A DNA stretch of 64,000 nt from Candidatus Nanoarchaeia archaeon (GCA_041501125.1 JBGQNO010000001.1:37981-101980); one strand, 5' to 3'. Positions 27,446 through 64,000 are shown, counted from the first letter of the stretch. The notes: generated from the letters alone by a model not told the origin. Numbers and translations: made by a program.

Positions 27446-27494
27446 TATATTTCTTTGCAAGTAAGTTTATAAATTAAAGTTCGCTTTAATATGA

Positions 27495-36394: not shown

Positions 36395-36402
36395 TTTTTC
36401 CA

Positions 36403-36486: not shown

Positions 36487-36575
36487 ATGAATATCGAACT
36501 TTAAGGCTATTTATAAATATTTCACAGAATGCTATACACAAAACTTTAAAATGCGATTATTTTAATAGTATATAA

Positions 36576-37597: not shown

Positions 37598-37718
37598 AAA
37601 ATCAAAGACTTCAAAATTCAAAGAATTTTGATAGCACTCAAAAATTTACATTTTTGATGTTTTTCAAGCATACAAATTTCCAAGATTTCCAAAAAAATGT
37701 GGAGGAAATTTTCATACA

Positions 37719-39248: not shown

Positions 39249-39258
39249 ACAAACAAAA

Positions 39259-39549: not shown

Positions 39550-39550
39550 A

Positions 39551-40033: not shown

Positions 40034-40055
40034 ATTAGTGTTTGCTTGACAAAAT

Positions 40056-41843
40056 ATGGCTGAAAATGAAAAGAGTTTAACTGACAGAATTGTTGATGCC
40101 TGGTTCTCAAAAGACAAAACTTTTGTTTATCTTACAATACTTCTTGTTCTTGGTCTGGTATTAAGAATTATTGCAGCTATGAACCTTGATGTTGCTGCAG
40201 ATGACATGCATTTTGCTCCTGGTGCTATCAATTTTCTTTCGTCAGGCAAGCTTGAATATTGGGACCAGTCAGCCGGACTTTGGTTTGCAGTTACTGATAT
40301 ATCCTATAAAATCCTTGGTGTGACACAACTTGCCTCGAGATTTGCACCAGTCTTGTTCGGCACGCTGCTTATATTTGTAGTATTCCTGCTTGCGAAAGAA
40401 CTATTCAAGGATAATAAAACTGCATTGATTGCATCGTTGCTTGTTGCTATCTCACCTTTCCATATAAAGAGCATGATGGCAGAGATGGATGTGATGGCAA
40501 TGTTCTTTGTTTTCCTTTCATTGTTCTTATTTTTAAGAGCATTGAACAACAATACCGATAAGAGGCTCTTGGCTCTGAGTGCGATTGCCCTTGGCCTTGC
40601 GATTTATACAAAAGTTTATCCTTTATTGTTTATTCCAGGCATGGTAATCTTCTGGTTTTATAAAAATCACAAAGAAAAAATTCAGGAAAGAGGAAGTTTC
40701 TACAAAACTCTTATTTTGTTTCTGGCAGTAATCTTTATTTTCTGTCTGCCAACTTTGACTCATAATTATCTACTTTACAAAGAAAAAGGCATAATGGACG
40801 TAAGATTTTCAGAGATACTTGGAATCAATAAAAGCTTAGATATGTACTCATGGGCAGCAGGTAGTGGAGCCAAGCCAGATTTTGCAGGATTTTTCTTAGG
40901 CAGGTCAGGAGCATATAATGGAATGCCAACTTCCCTGCTTGCTTTGTACTGGGTTTTTAATGCAGACCCGCTTGTCTTTATCCTAGGTATACTTGGTCTG
41001 ATTCTGCTCTGGAAGCGAAAAGATTTGTTGCTATTAATGGGTTTAATGTTTATATTTCCATTTGCATATCTTGCATCTCTTGTATTGCTAATTAAGCATT
41101 ATCTGTTTGTCTCACTTATTTTAACAATTCCAGCAGCAGCAACACTTGCAAGAATTTCAAAATTTGTGAGGCTAAGATACATTGCAGTAATTATAATAAT
41201 ATTCTCCTTAGTTTACTTGAGTTTTCCTAACCAGACAAATGCTCATTCGATTTACGAAAAGAGTACTATTGCCAAATTGATGGACTTTAAACAAAACATG
41301 AACCCAGAAGCTATAGTCCTGGTAGACAGCAGAGTATACAGAGGAGAGATGACATGGGCATTCAGTGATAGGCATTACCTTGAGGCCAGCTATATAAATG
41401 AATTTTTCAAAATGCAGGAAAACCAGACCAAAGTTTCAACACCTGTCTATTATATTGAGTGTGCAAGAGATGACTGTGGCTGGGGAACAGTTTACAACCA
41501 GCCAGAATTTAATGCAACAATGGAAAATATGTCAGCATACTTCAGAAGCATATCAAACAAAGTTGGAGCAATTAGTGATGCACAAGGAGAATACTTTGAT
41601 GTTTACAAAACTGAAATGAATCTTGTTCCGCAATCTGCGTCAATTGTAGATTTGACACATAATTGGTGGCTTTATCCTCTGGGCTACAATAAGCAGATTT
41701 CAACAATCTTTGATGAGTATACACCAAAGTCATTTTCAGGAATCTTGCTTAATAACATAGCCCATGCAATACTTTATTTTTCAATAGCAGCATTCCTTTC
41801 AATACTGGTTGTATTATACCTGCTAATTAAAGAATTATCCTGA
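40056..41843 (+). CDS. GT-C membrane glycosyltransferase (GT39/GT83, PMT/ArnT-like)
   Basis: 595 aa. About 11 N-terminal TM helices with an acidic DD motif in the first extracytoplasmic loop (DVAADDMHF). Large C-terminal soluble domain and a final TM. Confidence 0.55.
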   Translation: MAENEKSLTDRIVDAWFSKDKTFVYLTILLVLGLVLRIIAAMNLDVAADDMHFAPGAINFLSSGKLEYWDQSAGLWFAVTDISYKILGVTQLASRFAPVLFGTLLIFVVFLLAKELFKDNKTALIASLLVAISPFHIKSMMAEMDVMAMFFVFLSLFLFLRALNNNTDKRLLALSAIALGLAIYTKVYPLLFIPGMVIFWFYKNHKEKIQERGSFYKTLILFLAVIFIFCLPTLTHNYLLYKEKGIMDVRFSEILGINKSLDMYSWAAGSGAKPDFAGFFLGRSGAYNGMPTSLLALYWVFNADPLVFILGILGLILLWKRKDLLLLMGLMFIFPFAYLASLVLLIKHYLFVSLILTIPAAATLARISKFVRLRYIAVIIIIFSLVYLSFPNQTNAHSIYEKSTIAKLMDFKQNMNPEAIVLVDSRVYRGEMTWAFSDRHYLEASYINEFFKMQENQTKVSTPVYYIECARDDCGWGTVYNQPEFNATMENMSAYFRSISNKVGAISDAQGEYFDVYKTEMNLVPQSASIVDLTHNWWLYPLGYNKQISTIFDEYTPKSFSGILLNNIAHAILYFSIAAFLSILVVLYLLIKELS

Positions 41844-41852
41844 ATTTGAAAA

Positions 41853-42308
41853 ATGAACAATCAGCCACGATACTCGCTCAAGAATATAACAGACAAAAAA
41901 AACAAGAATGCTTTTGTTCAACTTATTAAATACTTTTTTACAGGCGGCATTGCAGCAGTAATTGACATAGGGTCTTTTTTATTATTCTCAATAAGTTTGC
42001 ATATTGATTACAGAATTTCAATAGTTCTTAGCTTTACCTTGGGCACATTAACTAACTTTTTCATATGCAATGCTTTTGTTTTTGAACGGAAAAGCCTGTC
42101 ACTATTCGCAGCAGCATACAGGCATTACCTATCGAGCCTTGGCGGACTGGTAACCAATGAGATAGTTATGATGTTTCTTATTGAACTTTTGAATTTCAGC
42201 AATCTGCTTATCGCAAAATTAATAGCTACTGCAGCAGCATTCATGGTTAATTTTTTGTTGATTAAATTTTATGCATTTAACAGCAAGATTAAAATACTCC
42301 AAAACTAG
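41853..42308 (+). CDS. GtrA-family polysaccharide-synthesis membrane protein
   Basis: 151 aa, 4 TM. KYFFTGGIAAVIDIGSFLLFS is a GtrA signature. Confidence 0.6.
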   Translation: MNNQPRYSLKNITDKKNKNAFVQLIKYFFTGGIAAVIDIGSFLLFSISLHIDYRISIVLSFTLGTLTNFFICNAFVFERKSLSLFAAAYRHYLSSLGGLVTNEIVMMFLIELLNFSNLLIAKLIATAAAFMVNFLLIKFYAFNSKIKILQN

Positions 42309-42317
42309 CGTTTTCCC

Positions 42318-43355
42318 ATGGAAAAAGTTCTGGTTACCGGCGGAGCCGGATTTTTTGGAGAGCTGCTGAAAAAAGAATTGCTTGAGAAAGGATTCTTTGT
42401 AGTAAGCATCGACTTGGAGAAAGACAGTTGCAAACATAAAAAACTTGTTGCAGTGCAAGGAGATATAAGAGACAAACAGCAACTAGAAAATCTATTCTCA
42501 AGGTATAAATTCAATGCCATTTTTCATATTGCAGCAATTCTTGCCCACTCTGTAAAAGATATTAATTTTTTATGGACTTCTAATGTGGATGGAACAAGAA
42601 ACATTGCCGAGTTTGCCAGGAAATATAAGGTTCCAAAAGTTGTTTTTACATCTTCTAATTGTTTATGGGCTAAGAATTTTCACAGGCCTGTAAAAGAAGA
42701 GGACATTCCAGAGCCAGTAGAAATTTATGGTAAGTCAAAGCTCGAAGGTGAAAAAATACTTCTTAGCTATAAAAAATATTTTAATGCAGTTATAATAAGA
42801 TGCCCTACAATAATTGATGAAGGCAGACTGGGTTTGCTCGCAATTCTTTTTGATTTTATAGATGAAGGCAGGAAAGTCTGGATTGTTGGCAAGGGAGACA
42901 ACAAGTACCAGTTTATTTATGCAAAAGACTTAATTGATGCCTGCATAAGAGCATTAAGGTATAACAAGTCTGATATTTTTAACATCGGCTCTGATAATGT
43001 TAAAACTTTTAAGGAAGTTTATGAGCATGTTATAAAAAAGGCAGATACAGGCGCAAGAACATTTCCATTGCCAAAAGGGTTGGTGATATTTTTAATGAAG
43101 CTTGCACATAAATTAAAAATCTCTCCGCTTGGCCCGTATCATTACAAGATGATTGCAGAGGATTTTGTTTTTGATACTAGTAAAATAAAAAACAAGCTTG
43201 GATGGAAACCAACACTAACAAATGAAGAAATGTTGTGGAAAGCATATCAGTATTATCACCAAAATAAAGCCGAGATACTCGCAAGAAAAGATGTTTCTGC
43301 TCATAAAAAAGCAGCAAGTATGGGTGTCATTAAGCTGGTAAAGTGGCTTTCTTAA
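42318..43355 (+). CDS. NAD-dependent nucleotide-sugar epimerase/dehydratase (SDR)
   Basis: 345 aa. VTGGAGFFG Rossmann motif and catalytic YGKSK. Confidence 0.8.
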   Translation: MEKVLVTGGAGFFGELLKKELLEKGFFVVSIDLEKDSCKHKKLVAVQGDIRDKQQLENLFSRYKFNAIFHIAAILAHSVKDINFLWTSNVDGTRNIAEFARKYKVPKVVFTSSNCLWAKNFHRPVKEEDIPEPVEIYGKSKLEGEKILLSYKKYFNAVIIRCPTIIDEGRLGLLAILFDFIDEGRKVWIVGKGDNKYQFIYAKDLIDACIRALRYNKSDIFNIGSDNVKTFKEVYEHVIKKADTGARTFPLPKGLVIFLMKLAHKLKISPLGPYHYKMIAEDFVFDTSKIKNKLGWKPTLTNEEMLWKAYQYYHQNKAEILARKDVSAHKKAASMGVIKLVKWLS

Positions 43356-44779
43356 CTCTTTTTTTCCTCGTGATACTCAGCATCAGTATTAACCTGCCAT
43401 TGGTCATATTTTCCTTCGCCAAGGATATTTTTTACAGCCAAAAGCGCAGTCATCATTGAGTGATCCGAGTTATTGTATCTGTGCAAGCCCCCTCTTCCAA
43501 TCGGCTGAAGAGAATTATCTTTAAAATTATTTTGCAGGTATGCTTTAATTATATTTACCTTCTCTTCATATCCTACAAGGTAAACTGGATAAACCTCTTT
43601 CAACCTGATAACCTCTGCATCAAAAACTTTTTCCACGCTTGCGAAGCTGAGTCTTTTCAAGTCTTGTTTTGCCTGTTCAATTAATTGCTCTTTAGACATA
43701 TTCCATAATTCATCTCCTTCATTGCAGGCATATTCAAATCCTATGCAGGATTTGCTTGCATCAGGCACCATGAAAGGACTCCAGTTCTTAAAAATTTGCG
43801 CTCGAATCGGCTTCATGCCTTCATCATGAGTATAAACCCAAGTGTCTGGCACAGTTTTGGGCTGGTCAATCATCAAAGCGACAGTTATGAAATCCCTAAA
43901 TCTCAAAAATTTAGCAGCATCAAGTATTTCCTGGAAAGGTTTGGGTTCTAATGAAAAAATTAGTTCTCTCAAAGGCATTGTAGACAGTACATAATCTGCC
44001 CTGAATTTTTTATTCTTCTTGCTGTTCTGTGCAGTCACTGAAACAATTTTGCCATTTTTGTGTTTTATCTTCACGACCTTCCATCCTTTCAGCACCTTGC
44101 CTTTCTTTGCCTCAATCAACCTGGTTACATGTTCCCACATCATGCCAGGCCCGTATTTAGGATATTTGAACTGCTCAATCAGGGACTTTATGTTATTGTC
44201 CTTGACGCCAAGAGATTTCTTTAAAGCATCTTTCAACGCGCTCATGAATGAAATTCCTTTGATTCTCTGACTGGTAAAATCCTTGCTTAAATACTTTGGA
44301 TGCACACCCCAAAGCTTAAAATTGTAGTCAATGAAAAATGGCTTTGCAAGATAATGCCCAAAATTATTAATGCACCAGTCAGCAACACTAATCTCAGGAA
44401 CTATAGGTTTGAGTTTTGCCTTTGCATAGCTCAATGCTATTTTCATTGAGTCAACCAGTCCAAAGACTCCAAGCAGTTCAAGGGGCTTTATTGGATAGTC
44501 AAAAAACTTCTTCCTGTAGTACCACCTTGATAATCTGGGTCTTGTCAAGAAATCTTCGTGCAAAATATTTTCCCACCATGCCTCAATTTCCCTGTTTTTA
44601 GTAAAAAATCGATGCCCTCCAATATCAAATCTGAAACCTTTGTAATTTATGGTTCTGGAAATGCCGCCGACAATGTTGTCTCTTTCCAGCACAGTCACCT
44701 TAAATCCCTTTTTAACAAGTTCATAGCCGGCAGTCAATCCTGCAGGTCCAGCACCGATTATTAAGACTGTTTTAGGCAT
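43352..44779 (-). CDS. FAD-dependent oxidoreductase (amine-oxidase/UDP-galactopyranose-mutase-like fold)
   Basis: 475 aa. N-terminal dinucleotide-binding motif LIIGAGPAGLTAGYEL. Confidence 0.6.
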   Translation of the reverse strand: MPKTVLIIGAGPAGLTAGYELVKKGFKVTVLERDNIVGGISRTINYKGFRFDIGGHRFFTKNREIEAWWENILHEDFLTRPRLSRWYYRKKFFDYPIKPLELLGVFGLVDSMKIALSYAKAKLKPIVPEISVADWCINNFGHYLAKPFFIDYNFKLWGVHPKYLSKDFTSQRIKGISFMSALKDALKKSLGVKDNNIKSLIEQFKYPKYGPGMMWEHVTRLIEAKKGKVLKGWKVVKIKHKNGKIVSVTAQNSKKNKKFRADYVLSTMPLRELIFSLEPKPFQEILDAAKFLRFRDFITVALMIDQPKTVPDTWVYTHDEGMKPIRAQIFKNWSPFMVPDASKSCIGFEYACNEGDELWNMSKEQLIEQAKQDLKRLSFASVEKVFDAEVIRLKEVYPVYLVGYEEKVNIIKAYLQNNFKDNSLQPIGRGGLHRYNNSDHSMMTALLAVKNILGEGKYDQWQVNTDAEYHEEKKS

Positions 44780-44837
44780 TTTGAGGTAATATTAACCTAT
44801 ATAGAAGGTTTAAAAATTTCATTATACTGAAGTTATA

Positions 44838-46343
44838 ATGGAACGTGGCTTGAAGGAGCAAGTTGTTAAGAATTCATTCTGGGCTTTCGCATCTTCTTTG
44901 ATAAACAGGCTTGGAGCATTAATTTTCACAATCATACTTGCACGATTCCTGCTTCCAGAAGGTTTTGGATTATATTCAATTGTCCTATCAACAGCAATGA
45001 TATTCTACACATTTGCAGACCTTGGAATAAACTCAACAATGATAAGGTATGTCTCGCATGCCCTCGCAAATAATAAAAAGAAAGTCTATGCATATCACCG
45101 TTATTTGCTCAAGGTAAAGTTTTTCCTGACACTGGCAGTGTCAGTTGTGTTGCTTGCCCTGTCCTATCCTCTGGCACTTTATGTTTTTAAGAACTCTGCA
45201 TTATTTGTTCCATTCATAACGTCTGCATTTTACATTTTTGTGCTTTCATTTGACACCTTTTATACATCATTTTTCTATACAATTGAAAAAGTGCAGTATG
45301 TCAGCTTTAAGGAGTCATTAAGCCAGATTCTCAGAATTGTTTTTGCACTTGTGGTGTTCTATGTTCTGGCATCTTCATATTATGTTGCAGGAATATTTGT
45401 ATCCTTGGCATTAATTTCATTATTCCTTGTTATTTTTATGTTGTATTACTTGAAAAAGTTGATTCCAGAGATATTCCTGCATCCTGGAAAAGAAATTGGG
45501 ATTGACAAAGCAAGAGTTTTGAAATTTGCAGGTTTCCTGACAATTGCAAGCATCTCTACAATATTCTTTTCTTATGTAGACTCAATTATGCTTGGAATGT
45601 TTTTGAAGCCAGAGTTTGTTGGTTTCTATCGTGCGGCATTCTCGCTTGTTTCAGGAGTTTCAGCCATTATTCTTGCACCAGCAGTTATTTTGTTGCCAAT
45701 GTTCACAAAACTTAAAAAATCCAAAACTGAAAATGCATTAAACCAGATTTTCAAGTATCTTACAATCTTTGCAGTTCCAGCAGCATTCGGCTTGCTTATT
45801 CTTGGAAAATATTTTGTAAGATTTTTCTATGACTATTCATACATTCCAGCAGCCCTGCCTCTTTATTTTCTTTCATTTTTAATAATTCCAGTAGTTTACG
45901 TGTCTGTTTTCCTTCCGCTTTTTTCAGCACGGGAAAAACCGCAGATTTTTGCAAAAATAATTGTGGCAGCAAGCATACTCAACATAATACTAAACTACAT
46001 TTTAATCAAGGCACTTCTTCCAGTATCGTCAATCTGGGCAACTGCCGGAGCCAGCATAGCTACTTTGACAAGCTGGATTTTCTATCTTATTGCAGTTGTT
46101 TATGTCTCTAAAAAAGAACTTGGCATTGCAGTTTCATTTAAGCATTTAATCAGGCCATTTATTGCAGGCATTATTATGTCCGGAGCTGTGCTTTATACAA
46201 TGACCTTCTTCAAGGACATGACTTTTATCTCAGGCACATTAGAGATATTGCTGGGCATACTAGTTTATTTCGGCGCATTGTTCTTGATAGGCGGGATAAA
46301 ACGCGAAGATTTTGAACTTATCAAGTTATTAAGAAGATTATAG
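44838..46343 (+). CDS. Wzx-like oligosaccharide flippase (MOP superfamily polysaccharide transporter)
   Basis: 501 aa, about 14 TM helices. N-terminal polysaccharide biosynthesis protein pattern. Confidence 0.6.
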   Translation: MERGLKEQVVKNSFWAFASSLINRLGALIFTIILARFLLPEGFGLYSIVLSTAMIFYTFADLGINSTMIRYVSHALANNKKKVYAYHRYLLKVKFFLTLAVSVVLLALSYPLALYVFKNSALFVPFITSAFYIFVLSFDTFYTSFFYTIEKVQYVSFKESLSQILRIVFALVVFYVLASSYYVAGIFVSLALISLFLVIFMLYYLKKLIPEIFLHPGKEIGIDKARVLKFAGFLTIASISTIFFSYVDSIMLGMFLKPEFVGFYRAAFSLVSGVSAIILAPAVILLPMFTKLKKSKTENALNQIFKYLTIFAVPAAFGLLILGKYFVRFFYDYSYIPAALPLYFLSFLIIPVVYVSVFLPLFSAREKPQIFAKIIVAASILNIILNYILIKALLPVSSIWATAGASIATLTSWIFYLIAVVYVSKKELGIAVSFKHLIRPFIAGIIMSGAVLYTMTFFKDMTFISGTLEILLGILVYFGALFLIGGIKREDFELIKLLRRL

Positions 46344-46389
46344 CTTCTGTTACATAATCATTTATAAACCGCTTCTTTCAAATAAAGGA

Positions 46390-47745
46390 ATGGCAAAAGT
46401 TCTTTTGATACAGCCAAATTATGATATCAGCACACCGTATAGATGGCAGTCAGAAGCATGGATGCCGCTTGCCCTTGTCTCACTGGCAACTTATGTCAGA
46501 GACAAGAAAGGTCATGAAGTCAAAATTTATGACAGAAACTTGGACTATAACAATAACGGTTTTATTAGCATTTTAAGAAAATTTAATCCAGACATTGTTG
46601 GTTTAACATGTTATACATCACCTGCAATAAAGGATGTTATGCAGGTTTCTAAAATTACAAAGGAAAATTCCAAGGCAATAGTTCTTGTAGGTGGTCCGCA
46701 TGCCACGCTTGAGCCAAAGTCATTGCTTGATTATCAATACATTGATTATGTTGTTCGTGGCGAGGGCGAGCAGCCTCTTCTAGAAATCTGCGACCTTGTT
46801 GACAAGAAAAAAGCTGCAAAAAATAACATCTCAAAATTGAAAAACGTAAACTATAATGAAATGAGGCCCTTCATTAATCTTAACGATGTTCCTATAATGG
46901 ATTACGACCTGATTGATGTCAAAAGATACACAGTAACTACCTTTGCAACCAGCAGGGGCTGTCCGGGAAGATGCAGATTCTGCTACAACCAGGGAAGAAA
47001 GTTAAGATTCTATGATACTGCAAACACAATTGAGATGATGTCAAGAGTGATAAAAAAATACAGGATAAAAGAGTTTACAATAGCAGACGATAATTTTGCA
47101 AACATGAGCAAGAGAACTACGGACATATGCAATGCCTTGGCAAAATATAATTGCTCATTTTTCTGCTTTCTAAGAACTGACCAAGTCTATGACAAGGTAA
47201 TGTCTGAGTTAAAGAAAGCAGGTTGTCTTACAATTCAGTTTGGTTTTGAATCAGGCAGCCAAAGAATTCTTGATTTTATACGCAAAGACAATACAGTTGA
47301 GCAGAATGCAAAAGCTGTTGAGCAATGCAGGAAATACGGGATTTTTGTAGAAGGAAGCTTTATGATTGGACTGCCGACTGAAACAACCCAGGAACTTCAG
47401 CAAACAATCAGCTTCATAGAAAAAAATAAGCTCGATAATGTATTTACAAAAGTCTACAAGCCATATCCATCAACCGAACTTTATGATTATTGCATACAAA
47501 ACAAGCTGATGAAAAAGCCGGAAACACTTGAGCAGTGGATTGAATTCTCAAATCTTTCAGAAGGCAACATAAACGTGAGTGACATTCCCACACAGGTTTT
47601 GCTTAAGGCATTGCAAAGAACCAATAAACACGACGTATTAATGTACATTAAGAAAGGTTTGATAATGGTAAAAAGAGGAAACATCAGCTACGCATTATTG
47701 AGAGCCAAGCAACTGATAACTCAGCAACTTAAGAAATTCATTTAA
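46390..47745 (+). CDS. B12-binding (class B) radical SAM enzyme
   Basis: 451 aa. N-terminal cobalamin-binding-like domain. CxxxCxxC radical SAM cluster motif SRGCPGRCRFC. Confidence 0.8.
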   Translation: MAKVLLIQPNYDISTPYRWQSEAWMPLALVSLATYVRDKKGHEVKIYDRNLDYNNNGFISILRKFNPDIVGLTCYTSPAIKDVMQVSKITKENSKAIVLVGGPHATLEPKSLLDYQYIDYVVRGEGEQPLLEICDLVDKKKAAKNNISKLKNVNYNEMRPFINLNDVPIMDYDLIDVKRYTVTTFATSRGCPGRCRFCYNQGRKLRFYDTANTIEMMSRVIKKYRIKEFTIADDNFANMSKRTTDICNALAKYNCSFFCFLRTDQVYDKVMSELKKAGCLTIQFGFESGSQRILDFIRKDNTVEQNAKAVEQCRKYGIFVEGSFMIGLPTETTQELQQTISFIEKNKLDNVFTKVYKPYPSTELYDYCIQNKLMKKPETLEQWIEFSNLSEGNINVSDIPTQVLLKALQRTNKHDVLMYIKKGLIMVKRGNISYALLRAKQLITQQLKKFI

Positions 47746-49364: not shown

Positions 49365-49400
49365 GTTTTGATTTACTTCTAGTGATATATAAAATTTTGT

Positions 49401-50015: not shown

Positions 50016-50096
50016 TTTAGTGTTTTCTTATAACGCCTGAACTCTTAAAAACCTTTCTGAAATAAACTTTTTAAACAACTTCATACTGTCTAGCCT

Positions 50097-51161: not shown

Positions 51162-51165
51162 CATC

Positions 51166-54174: not shown

Positions 54175-54232
54175 ACATTTTTTAGAATGGTTATATATTT
54201 AAATTCGTTTCTTTATCATAAAATGCCTGAAA

Positions 54233-55369: not shown

Positions 55370-55415
55370 TTCTTGATTACAATAATCTTTATAAATTTCC
55401 AGCGTAAGCTAGAGT

Positions 55416-56906
55416 ATGGCTAAGAAAATTCTTTTGGGCGCAGAATATTCAGTTTTAGAGCCCCTGGCATTGTTCTATCTTTCAGCAGTCGCCAAATCTG
55501 AAGGAGTTGAGTCTAAAATTGTTTTTGGCAGAGGCCCTCAATATCCAGAATGGAGAGAAGCTTTAAGCACATTCCAGCCTGATTTTCTAGGACTAAGTGT
55601 CTATACCGGACACCATGCTGCAATCAAAAAATTCTTAAAAGACGTCGTCAAGCCAAAATATCCAACTCTTGAAGTAATTGTTGGAGGCCCTCATGCAACC
55701 TTCTTTCCAAGACAGGTTTTAGATTTTGCAGATTACGTTGTTGTAGGAGAGGGATTTGGTTCATTAAGAAAAATTTTGAAAGGTGAAGCTCCAAAAGGGA
55801 TACTTCTCCCACTGGATAAGGAACAGTTTCCAAAGTCTGACAGGGATGATTTTTACAAAGAATACCCGGAGCATCTTAAAAATAGAATCAAGAATGTTAT
55901 AGCTGGAACAGGCTGCCCATACATGTGTTCATATTGTTATAATAGTGCAAATTTTGACGAAAATCCTGACTTTGATGAATCACAGAAAAAACTTTTGCTT
56001 GAAAAATATCCTCATAAAAGGTTCTTTCCCTTGGAGCAAAGGCCTGTTCAGGATTTTGTTGATGAAATTTCAGATGTCCTCAGATTATCTCCTGAGACAG
56101 AATTTTTTTATTTCCAGGATGATGTTTTTGGCAGTAACCTGGACTGGCTGAAAGAATTTGTTTCCAAAGCTTCTATAATGGACATATCTTTCCATGCAAA
56201 TACACGATTTGAACATATTGACCCAAGAAAGGATTCTGGAAAAGAAAGAATTGACTTGCTGAAAAAAGCAGGCTGTACAGGGTTTTCAATAGCTATAGAA
56301 TCAGCAGACCCTATTATTTGCAGGGAAGTTTTGTCAAGAAATCTCGACCATGATTTAGTATTTGCTTCAATGAATTATCTTCATGAGCACGGATTCAAAG
56401 TCAGAACCAATAATATGCTTGGACTGCCGCTTGGAGCAACTATGAATCCGACAAAAGTCAATCTTGAAGCAGACCTGGAAACTCTTGAGCTGAATGTCAA
56501 GTTATACAAAGAATTTGGCATTCCAACTTTCGCATGGGCTTCTACACTTGCACCTTATCCAGGAACGCATATTGACAGATACTGCAAAGAGCATGGTTTC
56601 TATGAGAATGTCTTTACAGATTTAACAGGAGAAGAAACCTACAGGATTAAAAGTGTTCTAAGGCATCCAAGAAAATGGGTTGGCTCGGAATTATCATCAA
56701 AAACACCTGAGGTATGGCTGTCCAATTATGAAGAGGAAATGTACAGGAATCAGATTAATACTTTAATGAACTTATTTCCGACTTTTGCGAAAATTCCTGA
56801 TGGGCATAAACTTGCCCGGGAATTTTTAGAACACGATAATCTTAATTTTGAAGTTCTTAATAAAGCATTCAGAACGCATGTATACAATAAAGAACTCTTT
56901 TTATAA
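55416..56906 (+). CDS. B12-binding (class B) radical SAM enzyme
   Basis: 496 aa. N-terminal B12-binding-like fold. Cluster motif GTGCPYMCSYCYN. Confidence 0.75.
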   Translation: MAKKILLGAEYSVLEPLALFYLSAVAKSEGVESKIVFGRGPQYPEWREALSTFQPDFLGLSVYTGHHAAIKKFLKDVVKPKYPTLEVIVGGPHATFFPRQVLDFADYVVVGEGFGSLRKILKGEAPKGILLPLDKEQFPKSDRDDFYKEYPEHLKNRIKNVIAGTGCPYMCSYCYNSANFDENPDFDESQKKLLLEKYPHKRFFPLEQRPVQDFVDEISDVLRLSPETEFFYFQDDVFGSNLDWLKEFVSKASIMDISFHANTRFEHIDPRKDSGKERIDLLKKAGCTGFSIAIESADPIICREVLSRNLDHDLVFASMNYLHEHGFKVRTNNMLGLPLGATMNPTKVNLEADLETLELNVKLYKEFGIPTFAWASTLAPYPGTHIDRYCKEHGFYENVFTDLTGEETYRIKSVLRHPRKWVGSELSSKTPEVWLSNYEEEMYRNQINTLMNLFPTFAKIPDGHKLAREFLEHDNLNFEVLNKAFRTHVYNKELFL

Positions 56907-56943
56907 AATAAGGCTTATAAAGTCAAAAGTAACTTCTTAACTA

Positions 56944-58305
56944 ATGAAAATCAACCTTATCGTTCTTCCATTTGAAGAAAATGTCAAGTCACCGCCGATT
57001 TGTCTCGGTTATATAGCCTCGCTTTTAAAGAAAGACAGTAATGATATCAAAATCATAGACTTAAACTTTGAAACTCAGATTTCTCAGGCAGATTTGAATA
57101 TTGTAACTACAACAACAGTCGATTACTATAACTGCCCTTTATTGAATATGGATGTTATTGACAAATGGCTCTCTGTTATTTCCAAGATAAAAACACCCCT
57201 TGCAGTCATAGGTCCGCATGTTACAACAATGCCTGAATATTTTGAAAAATATGCCCAGTATCTTGTTGTAGGCGAGCCAGAACTCACAATAAAAGAACTG
57301 GTTGTTTCATTAACAGAAGGTAAGTCACTAAAAAATATAAAAGGACTTTATTATAAGCAAGGCAGGAAATTTATCAAGAATAAGTCCCGTGAATTGCTTC
57401 AAAATCTCGATAGTTTGCCTTTTCCAGACAGAAGTTTGATTGATAATTCTCGCTATGTTAATCCAGTATGCAAAAATCATCCTTACACGATGGTCATTTC
57501 AAGTAGAGGATGTCCATACCACTGCACATACTGTTATATGGATGTCTACGGGCATTTTTGGAGAGCAAGAAGCGCTAAAAATGTAGTTCAAGAATTAATA
57601 GAAATCAGAAGAAAGTATAATATAAAAGAAATTGTCTTTCGCGATGATTTATTCTCGCTTGACAAAAAGCGCGTTATAGAAATCTGCAATGGTATTGTAA
57701 AGAATAATCTTGATTTGACATGGACCTGCCAGACCCGGGTTGATTCTGTAGACGAAGAAATAATAAGCAAGATGAAAGAAGCCGGCTGTTACTCTATATC
57801 CTTTGGCATAGAAGCCGGCTTGCAAGAGATGATGAACCGGTTGAAAAAAGGAATTAAAGTCGAGCAGGTCAAGAAAGCAATCTTTCTCTGCAAGAAATAT
57901 GATGTAAGAACAAGAGGATATTTTATAATTGGCTGTCCAGGCGAGACAAAAGAATCAATTCAGCAGACACTTGAACTTGCCAAAGAGCTTGACTTGGACT
58001 ATTTTATGCTTAGTATACTAACACCATATCCTCAGACAGAAATTTATGAAGATGCTTTTAAGAAGCGAATTATTAAAAAACGAAGTTGGGATGAAGCGCT
58101 GAGATGCGCAGGCATTATTGAAACGCCTTTTACATTCAATGAACTTGTGAAAATGAAGCGTGATTTATATTTAAGATATTATTTCAGGCCAGGATACATA
58201 CTGCCAAGATTAGCGCCTGGAAAAATAGACATGCTTTACCATGGCTTCATGCCGTTTGTCAAAAACATGATGATAAGAAAATTCAGAGGCAAAAAACTGG
58301 ATTAA
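56944..58305 (+). CDS. B12-binding (class B) radical SAM enzyme
   Basis: 453 aa. Cluster motif SSRGCPYHCTYCYM. N-terminal B12-like domain. Confidence 0.75.
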   Translation: MKINLIVLPFEENVKSPPICLGYIASLLKKDSNDIKIIDLNFETQISQADLNIVTTTTVDYYNCPLLNMDVIDKWLSVISKIKTPLAVIGPHVTTMPEYFEKYAQYLVVGEPELTIKELVVSLTEGKSLKNIKGLYYKQGRKFIKNKSRELLQNLDSLPFPDRSLIDNSRYVNPVCKNHPYTMVISSRGCPYHCTYCYMDVYGHFWRARSAKNVVQELIEIRRKYNIKEIVFRDDLFSLDKKRVIEICNGIVKNNLDLTWTCQTRVDSVDEEIISKMKEAGCYSISFGIEAGLQEMMNRLKKGIKVEQVKKAIFLCKKYDVRTRGYFIIGCPGETKESIQQTLELAKELDLDYFMLSILTPYPQTEIYEDAFKKRIIKKRSWDEALRCAGIIETPFTFNELVKMKRDLYLRYYFRPGYILPRLAPGKIDMLYHGFMPFVKNMMIRKFRGKKLD

Positions 58306-59498
58306 TTCTTGACAAGTTTTCTGTACATGCTAAAAGTTTCCTTGGCAATCTCTCTCCACGAGAATTTCTTTTCTGCTGTTTTCCTTGCAATCTTGCCAAG
58401 TAAATCTCTTTTCTTTTCATTTCCCAGAAGACTCGTAAGCTGTTTTGCCAGTTCATCAGATTTAATTGGGTTAAAATACAGAATTTCTTTATTCTTGCCG
58501 AGTTCCATGTTTGGTGCAATGTTTGATGATATTATTGCAAGCCCAGACGCCATTGCTTCAAGCAGGACAAGAGGCAACCCTTCTGCAAAACTCGGAAGAA
58601 CAAAAATATCAGCAGCCCGGTAATATTCAGGCATTTTGATATTCTCAACACTTCCAATAAATTTGACATATTGCTGAAGATTGTTTTCATTGACAAAATT
58701 CATAATCTCCTCAAAATATTTTTTATCATCAATTTGCCCGATAAAAATGAATTTTACATTCTTGTCCTTGGACAAAACTTTTGGAATAGCTTTGATTATT
58801 GCCATCTGGTTCTTGATTCTTGAAATCCTTGCAACGCACAATACTATCTTTTCATCAGTCTTGGCAAGCATTTTCCTCACACCAGACTTGCCTGGATAAA
58901 ATTTGATTAAATCAACACCATTTGAAATATGAATAACTTTTTTGGAATCAACACCTGCGCGTTTTTCTATTGATTTTTTTAAGGTTTCAGACACTGCAAC
59001 GACCTCATCAGCATTTTTGAAGCATAGTCTTTCTACTGAAGTTTTCAGCCAGAATGTCTTTGGCAGCATCTCATTGGACAAAGTCCAGAATGGTGTGTGC
59101 AAAGTATAAACAAATTTGCTTTTGTAAAATAATCTGTTCATTAACGAGAGTGCAAAGCCAGTGTACTGGTTATGGCAGTGTATTATGTCAAATTTCTCCT
59201 TACACATCAAAGGAATGAAATTAACCAGTGTCTTGATTGTGTATAACATTCTTCTTGCCACATGTCTTAATGTGCCAGGTGTTGTGTATACATCAGGCCC
59301 CCATGCTTTTGGCATGTCAATATTATGGTAGATAACCCCGGATAATTTATCTCGGTTATTATCCTTAAAATCAAGGATATGAACCTCACAAAGCTTGCTA
59401 AGTTCCTTTGACAGGTTGTATGCTACAGATTCTGTTGCTGTAGCACTCTTGGCAGAAATTGAGGACATTCCAGTCCCGACTTGCAAGACTTTCATGAC
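58302..59498 (-). CDS. Glycosyltransferase family 4 (GT-B)
   Basis: Start trimmed to MKVLQVGTGMSSIS. The track ORF extends to 59786 through low-complexity sequence. FAEGLPLVLLEAMASGLAIIS motif. Confidence 0.7.
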   Translation of the reverse strand, partial: VMKVLQVGTGMSSISAKSATATESVAYNLSKELSKLCEVHILDFKDNNRDKLSGVIYHNIDMPKAWGPDVYTTPGTLRHVARRMLYTIKTLVNFIPLMCKEKFDIIHCHNQYTGFALSLMNRLFYKSKFVYTLHTPFWTLSNEMLPKTFWLKTSVERLCFKNADEVVAVSETLKKSIEKRAGVDSKKVIHISNGVDLIKFYPGKSGVRKMLAKTDEKIVLCVARISRIKNQMAIIKAIPKVLSKDKNVKFIFIGQIDDKKYFEEIMNFVNENNLQQYVKFIGSVENIKMPEYYRAADIFVLPSFAEGLPLVLLEAMASGLAIISSNIAPNMELGKNKEILYFNPIKSDELAKQLTSLLGNEKKRDLLGKIARKTAEKKFSWREIAKETFSMYRKLVKN

Positions 59499-59547
59499 AT
59501 ACAGAAAAGAAAATAATTTATAAAGGTTGCCTGTTTGTCCGATTGCA

Positions 59548-60423
59548 ATGATAAGCGTAATCATAACATCATACAAAGAACCTGGAACCATAGGAAGAGC
59601 TATAGAATCAATTGCTGAACAGAAGCTTCTAGATACTGAAATTATAGTTGTAGCTCCAGATATGGAGACGCTGGCAGAAGCAGGCAAACTCCGGCAGAAG
59701 TATAAGAATTTGCGATTAATACAAGATGAGGGCAAAGGAAAGTCATCTGCACTCAACTTGGCAGTTTCAAAAGCAAAAGGAGACATTCTTGTGCTGACTG
59801 ATGGCGATGTTTACGTTGGCAATGACTCTATACTTCCACTTTTAACACCTTTTACTGACGGCAAGATAGGTGCTGTCTCTGGAAATCCAGTCTCATTAAA
59901 TCCCAAGGATAATAAATTTGGTTTCTGGGCGTATGTTCTGACGAAAGTAGCAGATGAAAGAAGAATTTATGCCTCTGAGCATAATCTCAGATTTTTCTGT
60001 TCAGGATATCTGTTTGCAATCAGAAAAAAACTTTTTCCAAATCTTCCAGAAGACTTGCTTTCAGAAGACGGATATATCTCGCATAAAGTCTATAAAGAAG
60101 GATTCGAAATCGCATATTCTTCAGAATCTAAGGTATTTGTGAAGTATCCTGATAACTTTGATGGTTGGATAAAGCAGAAGAAAAGAAGCGCCGGCGGTTA
60201 CAATCAGATTAAAAAAATGATAGGTGTGGAAATTCGTTCATTTAAAAAAGAATATTCGGGCGCGATTTCATTCTTCAAGTATTTTAAAGGTTTGAAAGAG
60301 CTGTTGTGGCTTTTTGAACTGTTCGCAGCCAGAGTTTATCTATGGATTATTATCTATCGGGATATAGATGTCAAAAATCAAAGCCATCATAAAATCTGGC
60401 AAAGAGTAGAAAGCACAAAATAA
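59548..60423 (+). CDS. Glycosyltransferase family 2 (GT-A)
   Basis: Start trimmed to MISVIITSYKEP. SALNLAVSKAKGDILVLTDGDV DXD region. Confidence 0.7.
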   Translation: MISVIITSYKEPGTIGRAIESIAEQKLLDTEIIVVAPDMETLAEAGKLRQKYKNLRLIQDEGKGKSSALNLAVSKAKGDILVLTDGDVYVGNDSILPLLTPFTDGKIGAVSGNPVSLNPKDNKFGFWAYVLTKVADERRIYASEHNLRFFCSGYLFAIRKKLFPNLPEDLLSEDGYISHKVYKEGFEIAYSSESKVFVKYPDNFDGWIKQKKRSAGGYNQIKKMIGVEIRSFKKEYSGAISFFKYFKGLKELLWLFELFAARVYLWIIIYRDIDVKNQSHHKIWQRVESTK

Positions 60424-60464
60424 AGTATAGAAAAATCTTTATACCTCTCGATTGTCGTTTCGGC

Positions 60465-61856
60465 ATGAAGCACCAGAAAATTTTGTCTAAAGAAAAGCTT
60501 AAGCAGATTATTCGCAAGTATAAATCTAAGGGCAAGAAAGTTGTCTGGACAAACGGATGCTTTGACCTGATACACTCAGGACACGTAAGATACCTTAACT
60601 CAGCAAAAAAACTTGGTGATATCCTGATTGTTGGTTTGAATTCTGACAAATCTGTCAGACAATTAAAAGGTCCAGACAGACCGATTCAGCCGCAGGATCA
60701 AAGAGCAGAAGTTCTTGCAGCTTTGGATTCTGTAGATTATGTTACAATATTTAATGATACTAGAGTTACTAAAATTCTCAATTATCTTAAACCAGACGTT
60801 TTTGTAAAAGGCGGCGACTATACGCTCGAGAAAATGGATCAGAATGAGAGAAAAGTATTGGAAAGCTATGGAGCAAAGATAAGATTCATCCCAGTTGAAA
60901 TAAATACATCAACATCAAAGATGCTTGACAAAATTACCAGCTCAGAAACTAAAAAAGGAGTTAAAGAATTCCTGTCCAACCTTCCTGTCAAAATGCACTA
61001 TGACTACAAGGATTACAACGAGCAAAAATACGAGACTGGTTTCTGGAACATCAACCGCTCAAAATACAAATGGTTCCAGAATTATACAAAACTAAAGATT
61101 TTCAGCAAATGGATAAAGGCTTCTAAAGGCAAGTCAGTGTTCTTGGATGCAGGCGGCGGTGTTGGAAACTGGACATTTTATTTTCTTAAAGATTTCAAGA
61201 AGTGCATAGTTCTTGATATTTCAGAAAACGCTTTAGCGCAGATTCCAGAAAAAGAAATTGTTAAGCTGCACGGCTCAATTCTCAAAATCCCCTTGCCCGA
61301 TAATTCAGTAGACTGCATACTACTTGCAGATGTCTTTGAGCATATTTTTTTGAATGACCTGCCAAAGATGCTTCAGGAACTTGCAAGAATCCTGACAAAA
61401 GATGGCAGAATCATAATTTTTACATCAGAAAATGGATATGGCATTGATTTGATTTTTGATAACTTGTTTGGACAGATGCGCGGAGGATTGACACTGGCAG
61501 ATATAGAGTGCGGGCATGTTAATCGTTTGACACTGGATGAAAAAAGAAAACTCTTCGCACAAGCAGGCTTGAAGCTGGCAGATTATTATAACTACAGTAT
61601 CTTTTTTCAGCAGCTTACTGACTTTGTTAAAGACAGTTCAGCCAAAATCATAGGCAAGCTGTTTGCAAGAAACAAGAGTGAAGAATCCGGCCAGTTTTTG
61701 AAAGACAGGTTCAAAACCCAGAAAGAGCCAAGCATTGTCACAAGAGCATTATTTTCTATTCCAACATTAATTTCATATCTGGATATTTATCTTGGAAGAT
61801 TTATCCGAGGCTCATACATTTTTTTGCTCCTCGAAAAAAGCAATAAAAAGGAATAA
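60465..61856 (+). CDS. Bifunctional protein: N-terminal RfaE-domain-II-like heptose-1-phosphate nucleotidyltransferase (cytidylyltransferase fold) fused to a C-terminal class I SAM methyltransferase
   Basis: 463 aa. N-terminus WTNGCFDLIHSGHVRYL...LNSDKSVRQLKGPDRP closely matches HldE/RfaE domain II. C-terminal half has methyltransferase motif I FLDAGGGVGNW and DVFEHI. Confidence 0.7.
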   Translation: MKHQKILSKEKLKQIIRKYKSKGKKVVWTNGCFDLIHSGHVRYLNSAKKLGDILIVGLNSDKSVRQLKGPDRPIQPQDQRAEVLAALDSVDYVTIFNDTRVTKILNYLKPDVFVKGGDYTLEKMDQNERKVLESYGAKIRFIPVEINTSTSKMLDKITSSETKKGVKEFLSNLPVKMHYDYKDYNEQKYETGFWNINRSKYKWFQNYTKLKIFSKWIKASKGKSVFLDAGGGVGNWTFYFLKDFKKCIVLDISENALAQIPEKEIVKLHGSILKIPLPDNSVDCILLADVFEHIFLNDLPKMLQELARILTKDGRIIIFTSENGYGIDLIFDNLFGQMRGGLTLADIECGHVNRLTLDEKRKLFAQAGLKLADYYNYSIFFQQLTDFVKDSSAKIIGKLFARNKSEESGQFLKDRFKTQKEPSIVTRALFSIPTLISYLDIYLGRFIRGSYIFLLLEKSNKKE

Positions 61857-61880
61857 AAACATCCATTTCTAGAAATAACC

Positions 61881-63476
61881 ATGCCAGAATCAGAGAAACT
61901 TGAAGATAAAAAGAAACAAAGATTGAAAGAATGGCTGTCTGACAGAAGCAATCTTGCACTTATTGGAATCATGATTTTTGCCTTTATAGTAAGGCTGTAT
62001 TATTATTTCTTGACAAAAAATCAGCCCATGTGGTGGGATGAATCAGGTTACATGGCAGCTGCCAAAAGTTATGCAGGCATCGGACACTACCAGCTCGAAA
62101 ACATCAGGCTTCCAGGATTTCCACTTCTAGCCTCAATATTTTTTAGGATAGGATTAACAAGCGAACCATTAATGAGGTTTGTTCTGTTGTTCATTCCATC
62201 AATAATCTTGATTTTCCTTACATACAAGATGATTAAAGAAATGTATCCTGACAAAAGAATAGCATTAATTTCAACGGCAATCATAACAGTCTTATGGGAG
62301 AATCTATTTTACAGCAACCGCTTCCAGACAGAGAATCTGGCAATTGTATTTGAATTCCTCGCAATATTTATTCTGTTCAAATCATATATTAAAAAAGAGA
62401 ATTCTTGGTTTATCTCGCCAAAATACTCTTTAGTATGGGTCACGTTACTTGCTTTTGTTTCAATACTTTTCAGGCCAGGAAACGTAATGTTCGTGCCGGC
62501 AGTCTTCCTTTTTGTAATTATACTGAATAAATCCATAATATTCAGTAAAAAAGGTTTAATTGCCTCAGCAATTTTAGTAGTTGCGGCAATCTTAGCAGTA
62601 ATTTTTATTCCTAAGATTGCCGGTGCGCTCATTAGCTATTACTACCATCCTGAAAGACCCCTGGCACTAAATGTCTTGTCAGTATTTTACGGATTTTATC
62701 AGTCATCAATATCCTGGCTTCCATCATTGTTCTTCTGGGCATTCCTTTTCGGTATATTCTTGTTAATCCTGGACTTTTCTATAAGCTTTGATAAATTCAA
62801 ACAGATTGCAGTTAATGGAGAAAATCTTGACTTTAAGTCAGATGTATTTAATATACTGCTTATTATCTCAATCCTTTTCATTTTTATATTCCTAATGAGA
62901 ACATATGACGGATTTGAGTACAGGTGGTTTTTCCCTCTTCTACCAGGCATGCTTGCATTTACAAGCAAAGGAGTTATAAGCTTCTCACAATATCTTGCCG
63001 GAGCATTTAAAAATAAGAAATTTGCAACCGCTCTGATAGTTATTATTGTTCTGCTTGGAGTTTGCACTCAACTAGTTCATGCTGATAACATCATTCGAGC
63101 AAAACTTGATTCATACTTGCAGGTTAAACAATCTGGCTTGTGGCTAAAAGAAAATTCAAATCCTAATGACATAATAGTCAGCGCATCTGTGCCGCAGCAT
63201 GCATATTATTCTGAACGGCAAATTGAAAATTTCTATGTTAACAATTCTAATGAGAATGAAACTGCATTTGACCAGAAACTTCTAGCACTTAAGCCGAAGT
63301 ATCTTGTTATCTCAGTCTTTGAGCCGGGTTTCCAGCCAGATTGGGCGCTTGCATGGCCTTCAGAACATAATCAAACAGCAACTCTGGTTCAGGCATATTA
63401 TCTGGATTCTGCAAAACAGCAGCTTGCGTTGATAATTTATGAACTGAAATATGGTCAAAACAATAGATTATTATGA
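61881..63476 (+). CDS. GT-C membrane glycosyltransferase (PMT/ArnT/GT39-like), second copy
   Basis: 531 aa, about 11 TM helices. DE motif in the first loop (PMWWDESGY). C-terminal soluble domain. Confidence 0.45.
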   Translation: MPESEKLEDKKKQRLKEWLSDRSNLALIGIMIFAFIVRLYYYFLTKNQPMWWDESGYMAAAKSYAGIGHYQLENIRLPGFPLLASIFFRIGLTSEPLMRFVLLFIPSIILIFLTYKMIKEMYPDKRIALISTAIITVLWENLFYSNRFQTENLAIVFEFLAIFILFKSYIKKENSWFISPKYSLVWVTLLAFVSILFRPGNVMFVPAVFLFVIILNKSIIFSKKGLIASAILVVAAILAVIFIPKIAGALISYYYHPERPLALNVLSVFYGFYQSSISWLPSLFFWAFLFGIFLLILDFSISFDKFKQIAVNGENLDFKSDVFNILLIISILFIFIFLMRTYDGFEYRWFFPLLPGMLAFTSKGVISFSQYLAGAFKNKKFATALIVIIVLLGVCTQLVHADNIIRAKLDSYLQVKQSGLWLKENSNPNDIIVSASVPQHAYYSERQIENFYVNNSNENETAFDQKLLALKPKYLVISVFEPGFQPDWALAWPSEHNQTATLVQAYYLDSAKQQLALIIYELKYGQNNRLL

Positions 63477-64000
63477 ACATTGGAACAAAGTTAGACAGAA
63501 AAGAAATTTTCTTCTAGACAGAGAAAAAGTTGCTTTGAAATTTATTTCTTCTATTTTAAAGCATGACAGTGTTTTATTGGATGCTGGTTGCGGCAGCGGC
63601 ATATTCATGGAGTTTCTCTCTAAAAAATTTCAAGATTTAAAACTTCAGGGTATTGACTTCTCAAAAACCGAAGTAAATGAAGCAAAACAAAAAGGATTTG
63701 ATGTAAAACAAGGAGACTTTGAAAAAGGCATTGCATTTAAGGACAAAGTTTTTGATATTGTGTATGCAGGCGAAATTATTGAGCATCTTTATAATCCGGA
63801 TTGTTTCCTTGCTGAACTAAACAGGATTTTGAAAAATCAAGGCTATCTTGTTCTCTCAACACCAAATTTATGTGTTTGGTATAACCGGATTTTAATGCTT
63901 CTAGGCATACAGCCGCTTTTCTTGGAGCCTTCAACAAAGTCAAAGTTAGTCGGCGCCGGGTTCTTGAAAAGATTCAAGAAAGAAAGCCAGCCTGTAGGAC
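63476..64000 (+). CDS. Class I SAM-dependent methyltransferase (5' part; continues past the window end)
   Basis: Motif I LLDAGCGSGIF. IEHLYNP post-II region. Reading frame is open to the window edge. Confidence 0.65.

Follow-up and report, generated by a model that had tools for sequence, protein, structure and literature searches.

In the heptosylation of the bacterial lipopolysaccharide (LPS) inner core, HldE or HldC act together with the family GT9 glycosyltransferases (GTs) WaaC, WaaF and WaaQ. Nucleoside diphosphate (NDP)-heptose enzymes are also reported from archaea, where their role is unknown (PMC11461863). Other described systems that resemble the locus studied here are the archaeal Agl clusters, among them those of Haloferax volcanii (AglB/D/J/P/R/S) and Sulfolobus (Agl16), and the radical S-adenosylmethionine (SAM) enzymes that act on sugars in aminoglycoside pathways (the diol dehydratase AprD4 and the C-methyltransferases GenK and GenD1) or on lipid-attached sugars (HpnJ and the archaeal calditol synthase Cds). 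We analyzed a carbohydrate gene island at positions 40056-64000 of a 64,000-nucleotide stretch of Candidatus Nanoarchaeia archaeon DNA (GCA_041501125.1 JBGQNO010000001.1:37981-101980; hereafter the window). The island shares parts with several known systems and is a member of none; Agl, heptosyltransferase and radical SAM equivalog models all score under cutoff. The prevailing view of DPANN archaea is that they live on the surface of other cells, attached to them, and their surface chemistry is essentially unknown. We think it likely that the island encodes a strain-variable pathway for a surface glycoconjugate in an uncultured, tiny DPANN archaeon of symbiotic type, probably using heptose and with radical tailoring of sugars. 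To an annotation made earlier from the sequence alone (the first-pass annotation), we add the DPANN host, strain variation by cassettes, a frameshifted poly-G tract, the pairing of a GT9 enzyme with a rare radical SAM family, and a flavoenzyme resembling UDP-galactopyranose mutase (UGM).

The block had been described as a single contiguous glycan locus dense in radical SAM enzymes and methyltransferases, and profile scans agree. Open reading frame (ORF) listing with Pfam and NCBIfam searches finds carbohydrate genes without interruption from 40056 to the window end, and nearly all of the earlier gene calls, both GT9 and most class-B radical SAM assignments included, pass thresholds where they had been placed. 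Two GT-C membrane enzymes, GtrA, an epimerase, a Wzx-like flippase, three GT4, two GT9 and one GT2 enzyme were all matched. Five further methyltransferases beside an RfaE-II fusion had been counted; the window holds four stand-alone genes (coordinates below; minus-strand genes are marked "-"): two of the Methyltransf_11 family (47738-48421, -; and 63451-64000, cut by the window end, 247 residues on the source contig), one weak Methyltransf_11 match (49401-50015, -; 30.6 bits, cutoff 21.2) and one FkbM-family gene (52271-53089, -; PF05050 78.5 bits, TIGR01444 124.9 bits, cutoff 37.7). The exact gene set was found only in a handful of close relatives and not as a widespread characterized locus. 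The window encodes archaeal PolD subunits, Cdc6 and SecDF, and the closest named relatives of its DP2 subunit, all from metagenome-assembled genomes (MAGs), are Nanoarchaeota (68%), Pacearchaeota (67%) and Woesearchaeota (63%). Thus, the host is an uncultured member of the DPANN archaea (Nanoarchaeota, Pace-/Woesearchaeales-like). The 98 kb JGI metagenome contig Ga0534157_0000056 contains the window, which also occurs in a Logan assembly and in NCBI MAG GCA_041480385.1.

Window positions 45161-63459 were compared with L089 (512 kb) and L090, contigs of different metagenomes, which align collinearly at 85-97% nucleotide identity. The breaks in collinearity are gene-sized, with cassette swaps at 51157-52292, 47711-48395 and 53044-53110. 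The first of these is exactly a radical SAM/SPASM gene (51166-52274, -; twitch-like; Radical_SAM 93.8 bits, SPASM 55.3 bits), which is missing in both contigs; L089 has a gene for a 233-residue Methyltransf_11 protein in its place. L090 lacks the methyltransferase at 47738-48421, and carries an additional FkbM gene between the Wzx gene and radical SAM A, as well as an additional methyltransferase between the FkbM gene and the GT4 gene at 53086. The glycosyltransferases, three B12-type radical SAM enzymes, the RfaE-II fusion and GT-C form a stable backbone; the SPASM radical SAM and the SAM methyltransferases behave as cassettes that can be exchanged. Bacterial O-antigen and capsule loci are known for the same kind of pattern.

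The SPASM radical SAM gene had been called in the first-pass annotation; its domains do pass, but a frameshift divides it into two ORFs of 248 residues (52274-51528) and 121 residues (51531-51166). The split lies at a G11 run of the coding strand (C11 on the plus strand, 51532-51542), which is the sole G/C run of at least 8 in the 64 kb window (~36% G+C). With G12 or G9 instead, the gene would be a single radical SAM/SPASM(twitch)-type ORF of 368-369 residues. Because the same truncated 248-residue product is called on four contigs, and an independent Logan contig stops inside the tract, the frameshift is not a one-off assembly slip. The tract is possibly phase-variable; a gapped DNA pattern search for tract variants in public metagenome contigs, a collection from which the source contig itself is absent, returned no match. 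Since cassette slots are exchanged and one of them holds an out-of-frame G11, the glycan is decorated differently from strain to strain, and possibly also by phase. The contingency loci of the Campylobacter jejuni capsule and lipooligosaccharide are similar in combining a heptose glycan with strain-variable sets of methyltransferase and tailoring genes and with poly-G in a tailoring gene. Unlike those loci, the island is archaeal, has Wzx and GT-C components rather than Kps ABC export, and has a poly-G seen at one length only, G11.

The predicted link to heptose comes from the gene at 60465-61856, which encodes an NDP-heptose nucleotidyltransferase domain (RfaE domain II/HldC-like) fused to Methyltransf_11. 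This fusion had been named in the first-pass annotation and holds at 185.6 bits to TIGR02199 (cutoff 181.5), with a PDB match to 5X9Q at 109 bits. Because a heptose-1-phosphate nucleotidyltransferase is fused to a methyltransferase, the glycan probably contains heptose or methyl-heptose. In place of the HldC motif FEHDRSTT stands VEINTSTS, so that the Arg5 linked to CDP/UDP-heptose synthesis (PMC11461863) is absent. Both GT9 enzymes of the window score above the PF01075 cutoff of 22 bits: GT9 a (50097-51161; heptosyltransferase family) at 64.6 bits, with RfaQ and heptosyltransferase III models under cutoff, and GT9 b (54233-55369) at 80.1 bits, with a match to the GT9 structure 3TOV at 73 bits. 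In a related Nanoarchaeota contig (L093), a GT9-GT2 fusion and radical SAM B are followed by two genes, one RfaE-II-like (162.7 bits) and one for an RfaE-I-like kinase (244.5 bits, cutoff 345). The TIGR02199 domain, the two GT9 enzymes and this kinase recall LPS heptosylation. In contrast to that pathway, the island belongs to an archaeon and has no lipid A/3-deoxy-D-manno-octulosonic acid acceptor, its nucleotidyltransferase is fused to a methyltransferase, and its GT9 is coupled to a B12-type radical SAM.

The coupling involves GT9 b and its neighbor, radical SAM B (55416-56906), a divergent B12-binding radical SAM (PF02310 61.5 bits, PF04055 58 bits; CPYMCSYC at residue 167). The radical SAM B family is rare: it comprises 258 clusters at 90% identity, the named ones nearly all from Nanoarchaeota/Woesearchaeota (one is labelled Deltaproteobacteria), and only 97 representatives at E<=1e-30 were found out of 1.84 billion. 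We compared 26 non-redundant radical SAM B loci with enough flank, from public metagenomes, with 76 loci of the radical SAM C family that served as controls. In 14 of the 26 loci (54%) a GT9 gene is found no more than 500 bp from radical SAM B, and in 18 (69%) within 3 kb; none of the 76 controls has one within 500 bp, and four have one farther off. The association is strong and specific, not obligatory. The first seven loci (the window lineage and L092-L096) had all shown adjacency, and a rule that GT9 is always adjacent was overturned by the larger sample.

Around the radical SAM B orthologues a core recurs that consists of GT4, GT2, a b-type GT9, radical SAM B, a PMT_2 GT-C, a C-like radical SAM and a short-chain dehydrogenase/reductase (SDR); it is seen in L004, L092, L093 and L094. 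GT9 is fused to GT2 in L093 and L113, and in L096, a Woesearchaeota MAG contig, GT9 and radical SAM B stand alone amid housekeeping genes. In the window the GT-C of this core is GT-C 2 (61881-63476), a marginal PMT_2 match (PF13231 28.3 bits, cutoff 26.1). Its orthologues in L092 and L093 match PMT/PMT_2, and in L004, L092 and L093 orthologues that score 150-164 bits stand beside radical SAM B and GT9. In the literature on radical SAM enzymes with glycosyltransferases or heptosyltransferases in DPANN, Woesearchaeota or Nanoarchaeota, we found no description of the island or of the GT9/radical SAM pairing. As a tentative proposal, GT9 b and radical SAM B could form an undescribed two-enzyme unit that makes a C-modified sugar (C-methylated, deoxygenated or ring-contracted) on an archaeal surface glycoconjugate. 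If so, a class-B-type radical SAM would for the first time be placed in the primary assembly of a cell-surface glycan and not in an antibiotic, cofactor, lipid or peptide pathway, NDP-heptose would have a concrete role in archaea, and cassette swapping, possibly with poly-G slippage, would tune the episymbiont surface shown to hosts and viruses.

Different tailoring genes accompany the core in relatives. Beside the GT4/GT9-GT2/radical SAM B core of L093 (contig ERZ27248688 k141_153464), positions 585-4781 encode a Fom1-like fusion of cytidylyltransferase and phosphoenolpyruvate mutase, a thiamine pyrophosphate-dependent decarboxylase, an Fe-alcohol dehydrogenase and a CDP-alcohol phosphatidyltransferase. 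Such a set is typical of glycan decoration with phosphonates (hydroxyethyl- or aminoethyl-phosphonate). Other relatives carry sulfatase/phosphodiesterase-type, PAPS reductase and carbamoyltransferase genes.

Two further radical SAM genes of the backbone are radical SAM A (46390-47745; B12-binding domain PF02310 76.1 bits and radical SAM core PF04055 81 bits, class-B architecture; CPGRCRFC at residue 191) and the HpnJ/AprD4-like radical SAM C (56944-58305; PF04055 82.5 bits; CPYHCTYC at residue 190). The CxxxCxxC motif is present in all four radical SAM enzymes of the island. The first-pass annotation had counted three B12-binding radical SAMs; A and B pass PF02310, but C reaches only 19.0 bits against a gathering cutoff of 32.1. 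Yet the N-terminal domain of C is Rossmann-like in the AlphaFold model, and PF02310 is present in many relatives at 38% identity. We describe C as having a degenerate B12-type domain. With a mutual identity of only 23-32%, A, B and C are three distinct enzymes and not recent duplicates.

None of the three reaches an NCBIfam equivalog cutoff. Radical SAM C scores 233.3 bits against HpnJ (cutoff 577.6), 165.3 against BchE (481), 148.1 against AprD4 (500) and 126.3 against the MgmA type (360), and A and B score lower; A is also closest to HpnJ (160.9 bits). After HpnJ, the next matches of C and A are BchE, AprD4, PhpK and the methyl-coenzyme M reductase glutamine methylase. With all scores far under cutoff, we rejected assignment to the HpnJ, BchE, AprD4, PhpK, MgmA, HpnR or GenK-like KedN5 equivalogs. 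By sequence, A, B and C all have AprD4 (6FD2) as their closest solved relative, with MgmA, OxsB and TokK next, at identities to solved structures of only 12-22%. Structure prediction with a fold search of the PDB, which the first-pass annotation had suggested as a check, was run for B and C. The AlphaFold2 model of C (pLDDT 89.7) is most similar to AprD4 6FD2 (TM-score 0.76), and that of B (pLDDT 90.5) reaches TM-scores of only 0.59-0.64 (AprD4, TsrM, MgmA, OxsB). Both have the class-B two-domain architecture, but methylases and non-methylases are not separable in this way.

From domain architecture, a heavily methylated and possibly C-methylated glycan had been proposed. Architecture does not establish C-methylation, because AprD4, a sugar 1,2-diol dehydratase, shares it without binding cobalamin (PMC12931638), and the reaction proposed for HpnJ and Cds is a sugar ring contraction on lipids (PMC13459092). 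With AprD4 the closest solved relative, HpnJ the best NCBIfam match of two of the enzymes and C under the B12 threshold, the proposal is not established, and C-methylation of the glycan is plausible but unproven.

The match to HpnJ raises a different reading, in which membrane lipids, possibly scavenged from a host, carry a sugar head group that the radical SAMs and glycosyltransferases build and modify, and the product is a lipid-anchored glycan (a glycolipid or lipoglycan) rather than a glycoprotein. HpnJ (cyclitol ether on hopanoids) and Cds (hexose ring contraction on glycerol dialkyl glycerol tetraethers, GDGTs) do act on lipid-linked sugars (PMC13459092). Radical SAMs C and A also match a "lipid biosynthesis B12-binding/radical SAM protein" model, GT4 c matches glycolipid synthases at low score, and related loci contain CDP-OH_P_transf and LPG_synthase_TM genes. 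However, all these matches are far under their family cutoffs, and HpnJ scores of 161-233 bits against 577.6 do not make A and C orthologues of it; lipid-biosynthesis genes are absent from the window, with no hopanoid or GDGT genes near the island, and Wzx with several GT-Cs fits oligosaccharide export and extracytoplasmic transfer. We regard a lipid product of this kind as unlikely.

AprD4 and radical SAMs of the GenK and SPASM types are typically found in clusters for aminoglycosides and for ribosomally synthesized, post-translationally modified peptides, and the radical SAM C family often stands in tandem with SPASM radical SAMs in bacteria. The locus could accordingly be read as making a diffusible glycosylated natural product, either aminoglycoside-like or a glycosylated peptide of that class. 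Like the aminoglycoside enzymes, those of the island combine a Rossmann-like N-terminal domain with a radical SAM barrel in a carbohydrate context. The identities and the AprD4 model score given above set them apart, as does their place in a primary cell-surface locus instead of an antibiotic cluster. An aminocyclitol synthase, precursor peptide, protease and cognate transporter were not found in the block, which has Wzx, GtrA and 2-3 GT-Cs together with GT2, GT4 and GT9, and is a chromosomal, lineage-conserved core next to secDF. A natural product pathway is very improbable.

The radical SAM C family itself is very large: a tight clade of ~16 clusters at >=51% identity is followed by a drop to ~38-40%, where Patescibacteria, many DPANN lineages, Methanobacterium, Bathyarchaeia, Omnitrophota and Chloroflexota appear. 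In 83 loci of the family, tandem arrays of up to nine paralogues are frequent, with SPASM radical SAMs, and glycan genes stand alongside mainly in DPANN. We had considered the family as a marker of glycan loci; these 83 loci, mostly tandem paralogue arrays in many bacterial and archaeal phyla, rule this out. Several bacterial and Bathyarchaeia loci (L021, L035, L079 and others) have arrays of 5-9 B12-type radical SAM paralogues, often with SPASM radical SAMs and small methyltransferases, seemingly unrelated to glycan genes.

The first part of the island (40056-46343) encodes putative precursor and outer-face functions: GT-C 1, a PMT_2/ArnT-like enzyme (40056-41843; PF13231 61.6 bits, cutoff 26.1; PF02366 49.4 bits), a small GtrA-family membrane protein predicted to flip polyprenyl-phosphate sugars (41853-42308; PF04138 60 bits), an SDR-type NDP-sugar epimerase/dehydratase with GalE as best match (42318-43355; PF01370 138 bits; TIGR01179 108.7 bits, under cutoff), a flavoenzyme (43352-44779, -) and a Wzx/MOP-family flippase (44838-46343; PF01943 112.6 bits). 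The flavoenzyme had been labelled an FAD oxidoreductase; the flavin part stands, but the label is too generic. It belongs to the PRK07208 family (NF005548 585.5 bits, cutoff 389), and its best PDB matches by sequence are the eukaryote-type UGMs 3UKA, 3UTE and 4DSG (70-78 bits, near full length); the UGM model TIGR00031 gives 30 bits, under its cutoff of 303.75. A DprE1-like oxidase was considered and dropped, a UGM-like enzyme being preferred on the PDB matches. It is a probable NDP-sugar pyranose/furanose mutase. A UGM-like flavoenzyme next to a GalE-like SDR suggests a furanose sugar.

GtrA, GT-C, SDR and UGM-like flavoenzyme side by side recall the mycobacterial arabinogalactan genes (Rv3789 GtrA, DprE1/E2, the GT-C AftA, and the UGM Glf). 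By analogy, the grouping suggests a lipid-phosphate-linked, possibly furanose donor that would be used outside the membrane. The flavoenzyme differs in being PRK07208/UGM-like and not DprE1, and the likeness is at family level. A GT-C that uses a lipid-phosphate sugar on the outer face is also the logic of AglD-AglR-AglS.

The remaining backbone enzymes are three GT4-type glycosyltransferases, a (GT-B; 48411-49364, -; PF13692 44.8 bits, PF00534 35.6 bits), b (53086-54174, -; PF00534 117.1 bits) and c (58302-~59564, -; PF00534 116.6 bits), and a GT2 enzyme (~59548-60423; PF00535 76.2 bits). The start of GT4 c was taken from the source-contig gene call (420 residues), as the 494-residue ORF overlaps the GT2 gene. 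Beyond base 64000 the island goes on, on the source contig and the NCBI MAG contig, where it takes in the remainder of the methyltransferase and genes for an SDR, a GT8, a third PMT_2 GT-C and a GT2, so that the membrane and export components amount to GtrA, Wzx and 2-3 GT-C enzymes.

In the pathway that we favor, the GalE-like SDR and the UGM-like flavoenzyme may supply a furanose sugar. An assembly core of GT2, GT9, radical SAM B, GT-C and GT4, with or without the heptose enzyme, recurs across Nanoarchaeota, and the cytoplasmic GT4, GT2 and GT9 enzymes would build an oligosaccharide on a lipid carrier, with NDP-heptose from the RfaE-II domain among the donors. The fused methyltransferase could methylate the heptose made by that domain. 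The SAM methyltransferases and the four radical SAMs would tailor the sugars by radical reactions that could include C-methylation (GenK-type), deoxygenation (AprD4-type) or ring contraction (HpnJ/Cds-type); radical SAM B would most likely act on the sugar installed or used by its GT9 neighbor. GtrA and Wzx could translocate lipid-linked sugars or intermediates across the membrane, and the GT-C enzymes could add sugars from polyprenyl-phosphate sugars outside the cell or carry out transfer to the final acceptor. The acceptor may be Asn, via an AglB encoded elsewhere, Ser/Thr, via the PMT_2-type enzymes, or a lipid.

One candidate glycoprotein is encoded at 2260-4896 (-). The 878-residue protein has an N-terminal signal/transmembrane segment, a Big_13 domain, a Gly/Thr-rich linker and a C-terminal transmembrane anchor, and it had been noted as sequon-rich. 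This is borne out by 49 NxS/T sequons against 19.7 +/- 3.8 in shuffles (0 of 2000 reach 49), or 5.6 per 100 residues against 0-1.3 in the other window proteins, and makes it a convincing candidate by sequence. The island could then build a lipid-linked oligosaccharide for transfer to Asn sequons such as these by an AglB encoded elsewhere, with the three B12 radical SAMs acting as C-methyltransferases on a heavily methylated N-glycan. GT2 and GT4 enzymes, a Wzx-like flippase and SAM methyltransferases, all present in the island as is GT-C, are usual in Agl pathways (as is generally known from Haloferax and Methanococcus), and two of the radical SAMs have bona fide B12 domains. However, the Agl models are all under their NCBIfam cutoffs (archaeo_STT3 25.3 of 450 bits, AglJ 29.7 of 325, Agl16 113 of 575, and Agl23 48.6 of 126, the last matched by GT-C 1), in keeping with the earlier remark that the block fits no characterized Agl locus. 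To our knowledge, no characterized Agl pathway includes GT9, a nucleotidyltransferase for heptose, a UGM-like enzyme or four radical SAMs. The PMT_2-type GT-Cs point equally to O-glycosylation or to lipid or glycan acceptors, the closest characterized relatives of the radical SAMs are not methylases, and the surface protein lies 35 kb away beyond housekeeping genes, with nothing in the window connecting the two, which leaves the earlier suggestion that the island decorates it plausible but unproven. We consider a C-methylated N-glycan possible and rather doubtful.

Several observations weigh against the broader reading of a heptose-using, radically tailored surface glycoconjugate. The pathway is read from the genes of an uncultured organism, and its product, acceptor and activities are predictions. 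Neither GT9 enzyme is a member of the heptosyltransferase I, II or III or RfaQ equivalogs in NCBIfam (best scores 70.9-89.2 bits, cutoffs 134.6-467), and the GmhA, heptose kinase and GmhB of the LPS route were not found among the ORFs scanned in the window; because of these two results we infer heptose rather than observe it. AglB/STT3 is likewise absent from the window. A GT9 gene was not seen within ~5-6 kb in six of the 26 radical SAM B loci, so the pairing is not universal. Cobalamin binding is predicted only, and the cofactor, if used, would probably have to be scavenged, as inferred from the reduced genomes of DPANN. Finally, the G11 frame is identical in all four assemblies that span the tract, and the radical SAM/SPASM gene may be a pseudogene.

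In this island, sugar enzymes of the heptose type are linked with unusual radical enzymes, and genes for sugar decoration are exchanged among closely related strains. GT9, radical SAM B and the nucleotidyltransferase-methyltransferase fusion are a tractable set, suited to heterologous expression, for studying the function of NDP-heptoses in archaea, which an earlier report of such enzymes outside bacteria did not settle (PMC11461863). Radical SAM B, as a small, well-delimited family with a conserved glycosyltransferase partner, offers an entry to new radical carbohydrate chemistry. The exchange of methyltransferase and radical SAM cassettes parallels the diversification of bacterial O-antigens and capsules and suggests diversifying selection on archaeal surface glycans, perhaps by viruses or host recognition. 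If cobalamin is truly needed, a cofactor dependence of reduced-genome organisms would be revealed.

The left border of the island is sharp. Upstream are secF/secD and then tRNA, ribosomal, RNA polymerase, Lhr helicase, Cdc6 and PolD genes. A glycan island starts directly after secF/secD in the window (36680-40056) and in two distant relatives (L005 4320-9917 and L006 180-5777). The secF/secD flank suggests a conserved chromosomal site for an island of variable gene content in this lineage.

Elsewhere in the window, PolD DP2 (6457-9915, 1152 residues) is without an intein; many related Nanoarchaeota/Pacearchaeota DP2 proteins are ~1600 residues long with intein/LAGLIDADG-type domains (PF14528, PF14890). 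Two paralogous tyrosine recombinase genes (Phage_integrase; 24600-25442 and 28052-28885) lie in direct orientation 3.45 kb apart, with DNA segments that are 76-80% identical. Between them are four ORFs (25439-28055) without a Pfam match, in a stretch of slightly lower G+C, and the region is possibly an integrated element, or else a cassette under recombinase control. A PIN-domain ORF at 35885-36541 (-; 218 residues, TTG start) overlaps the same-strand tRNA-Leu at 36402-36487. Because of this overlap, and since the PIN domain begins only at residue 81, the true start of the gene is probably downstream of the tRNA.

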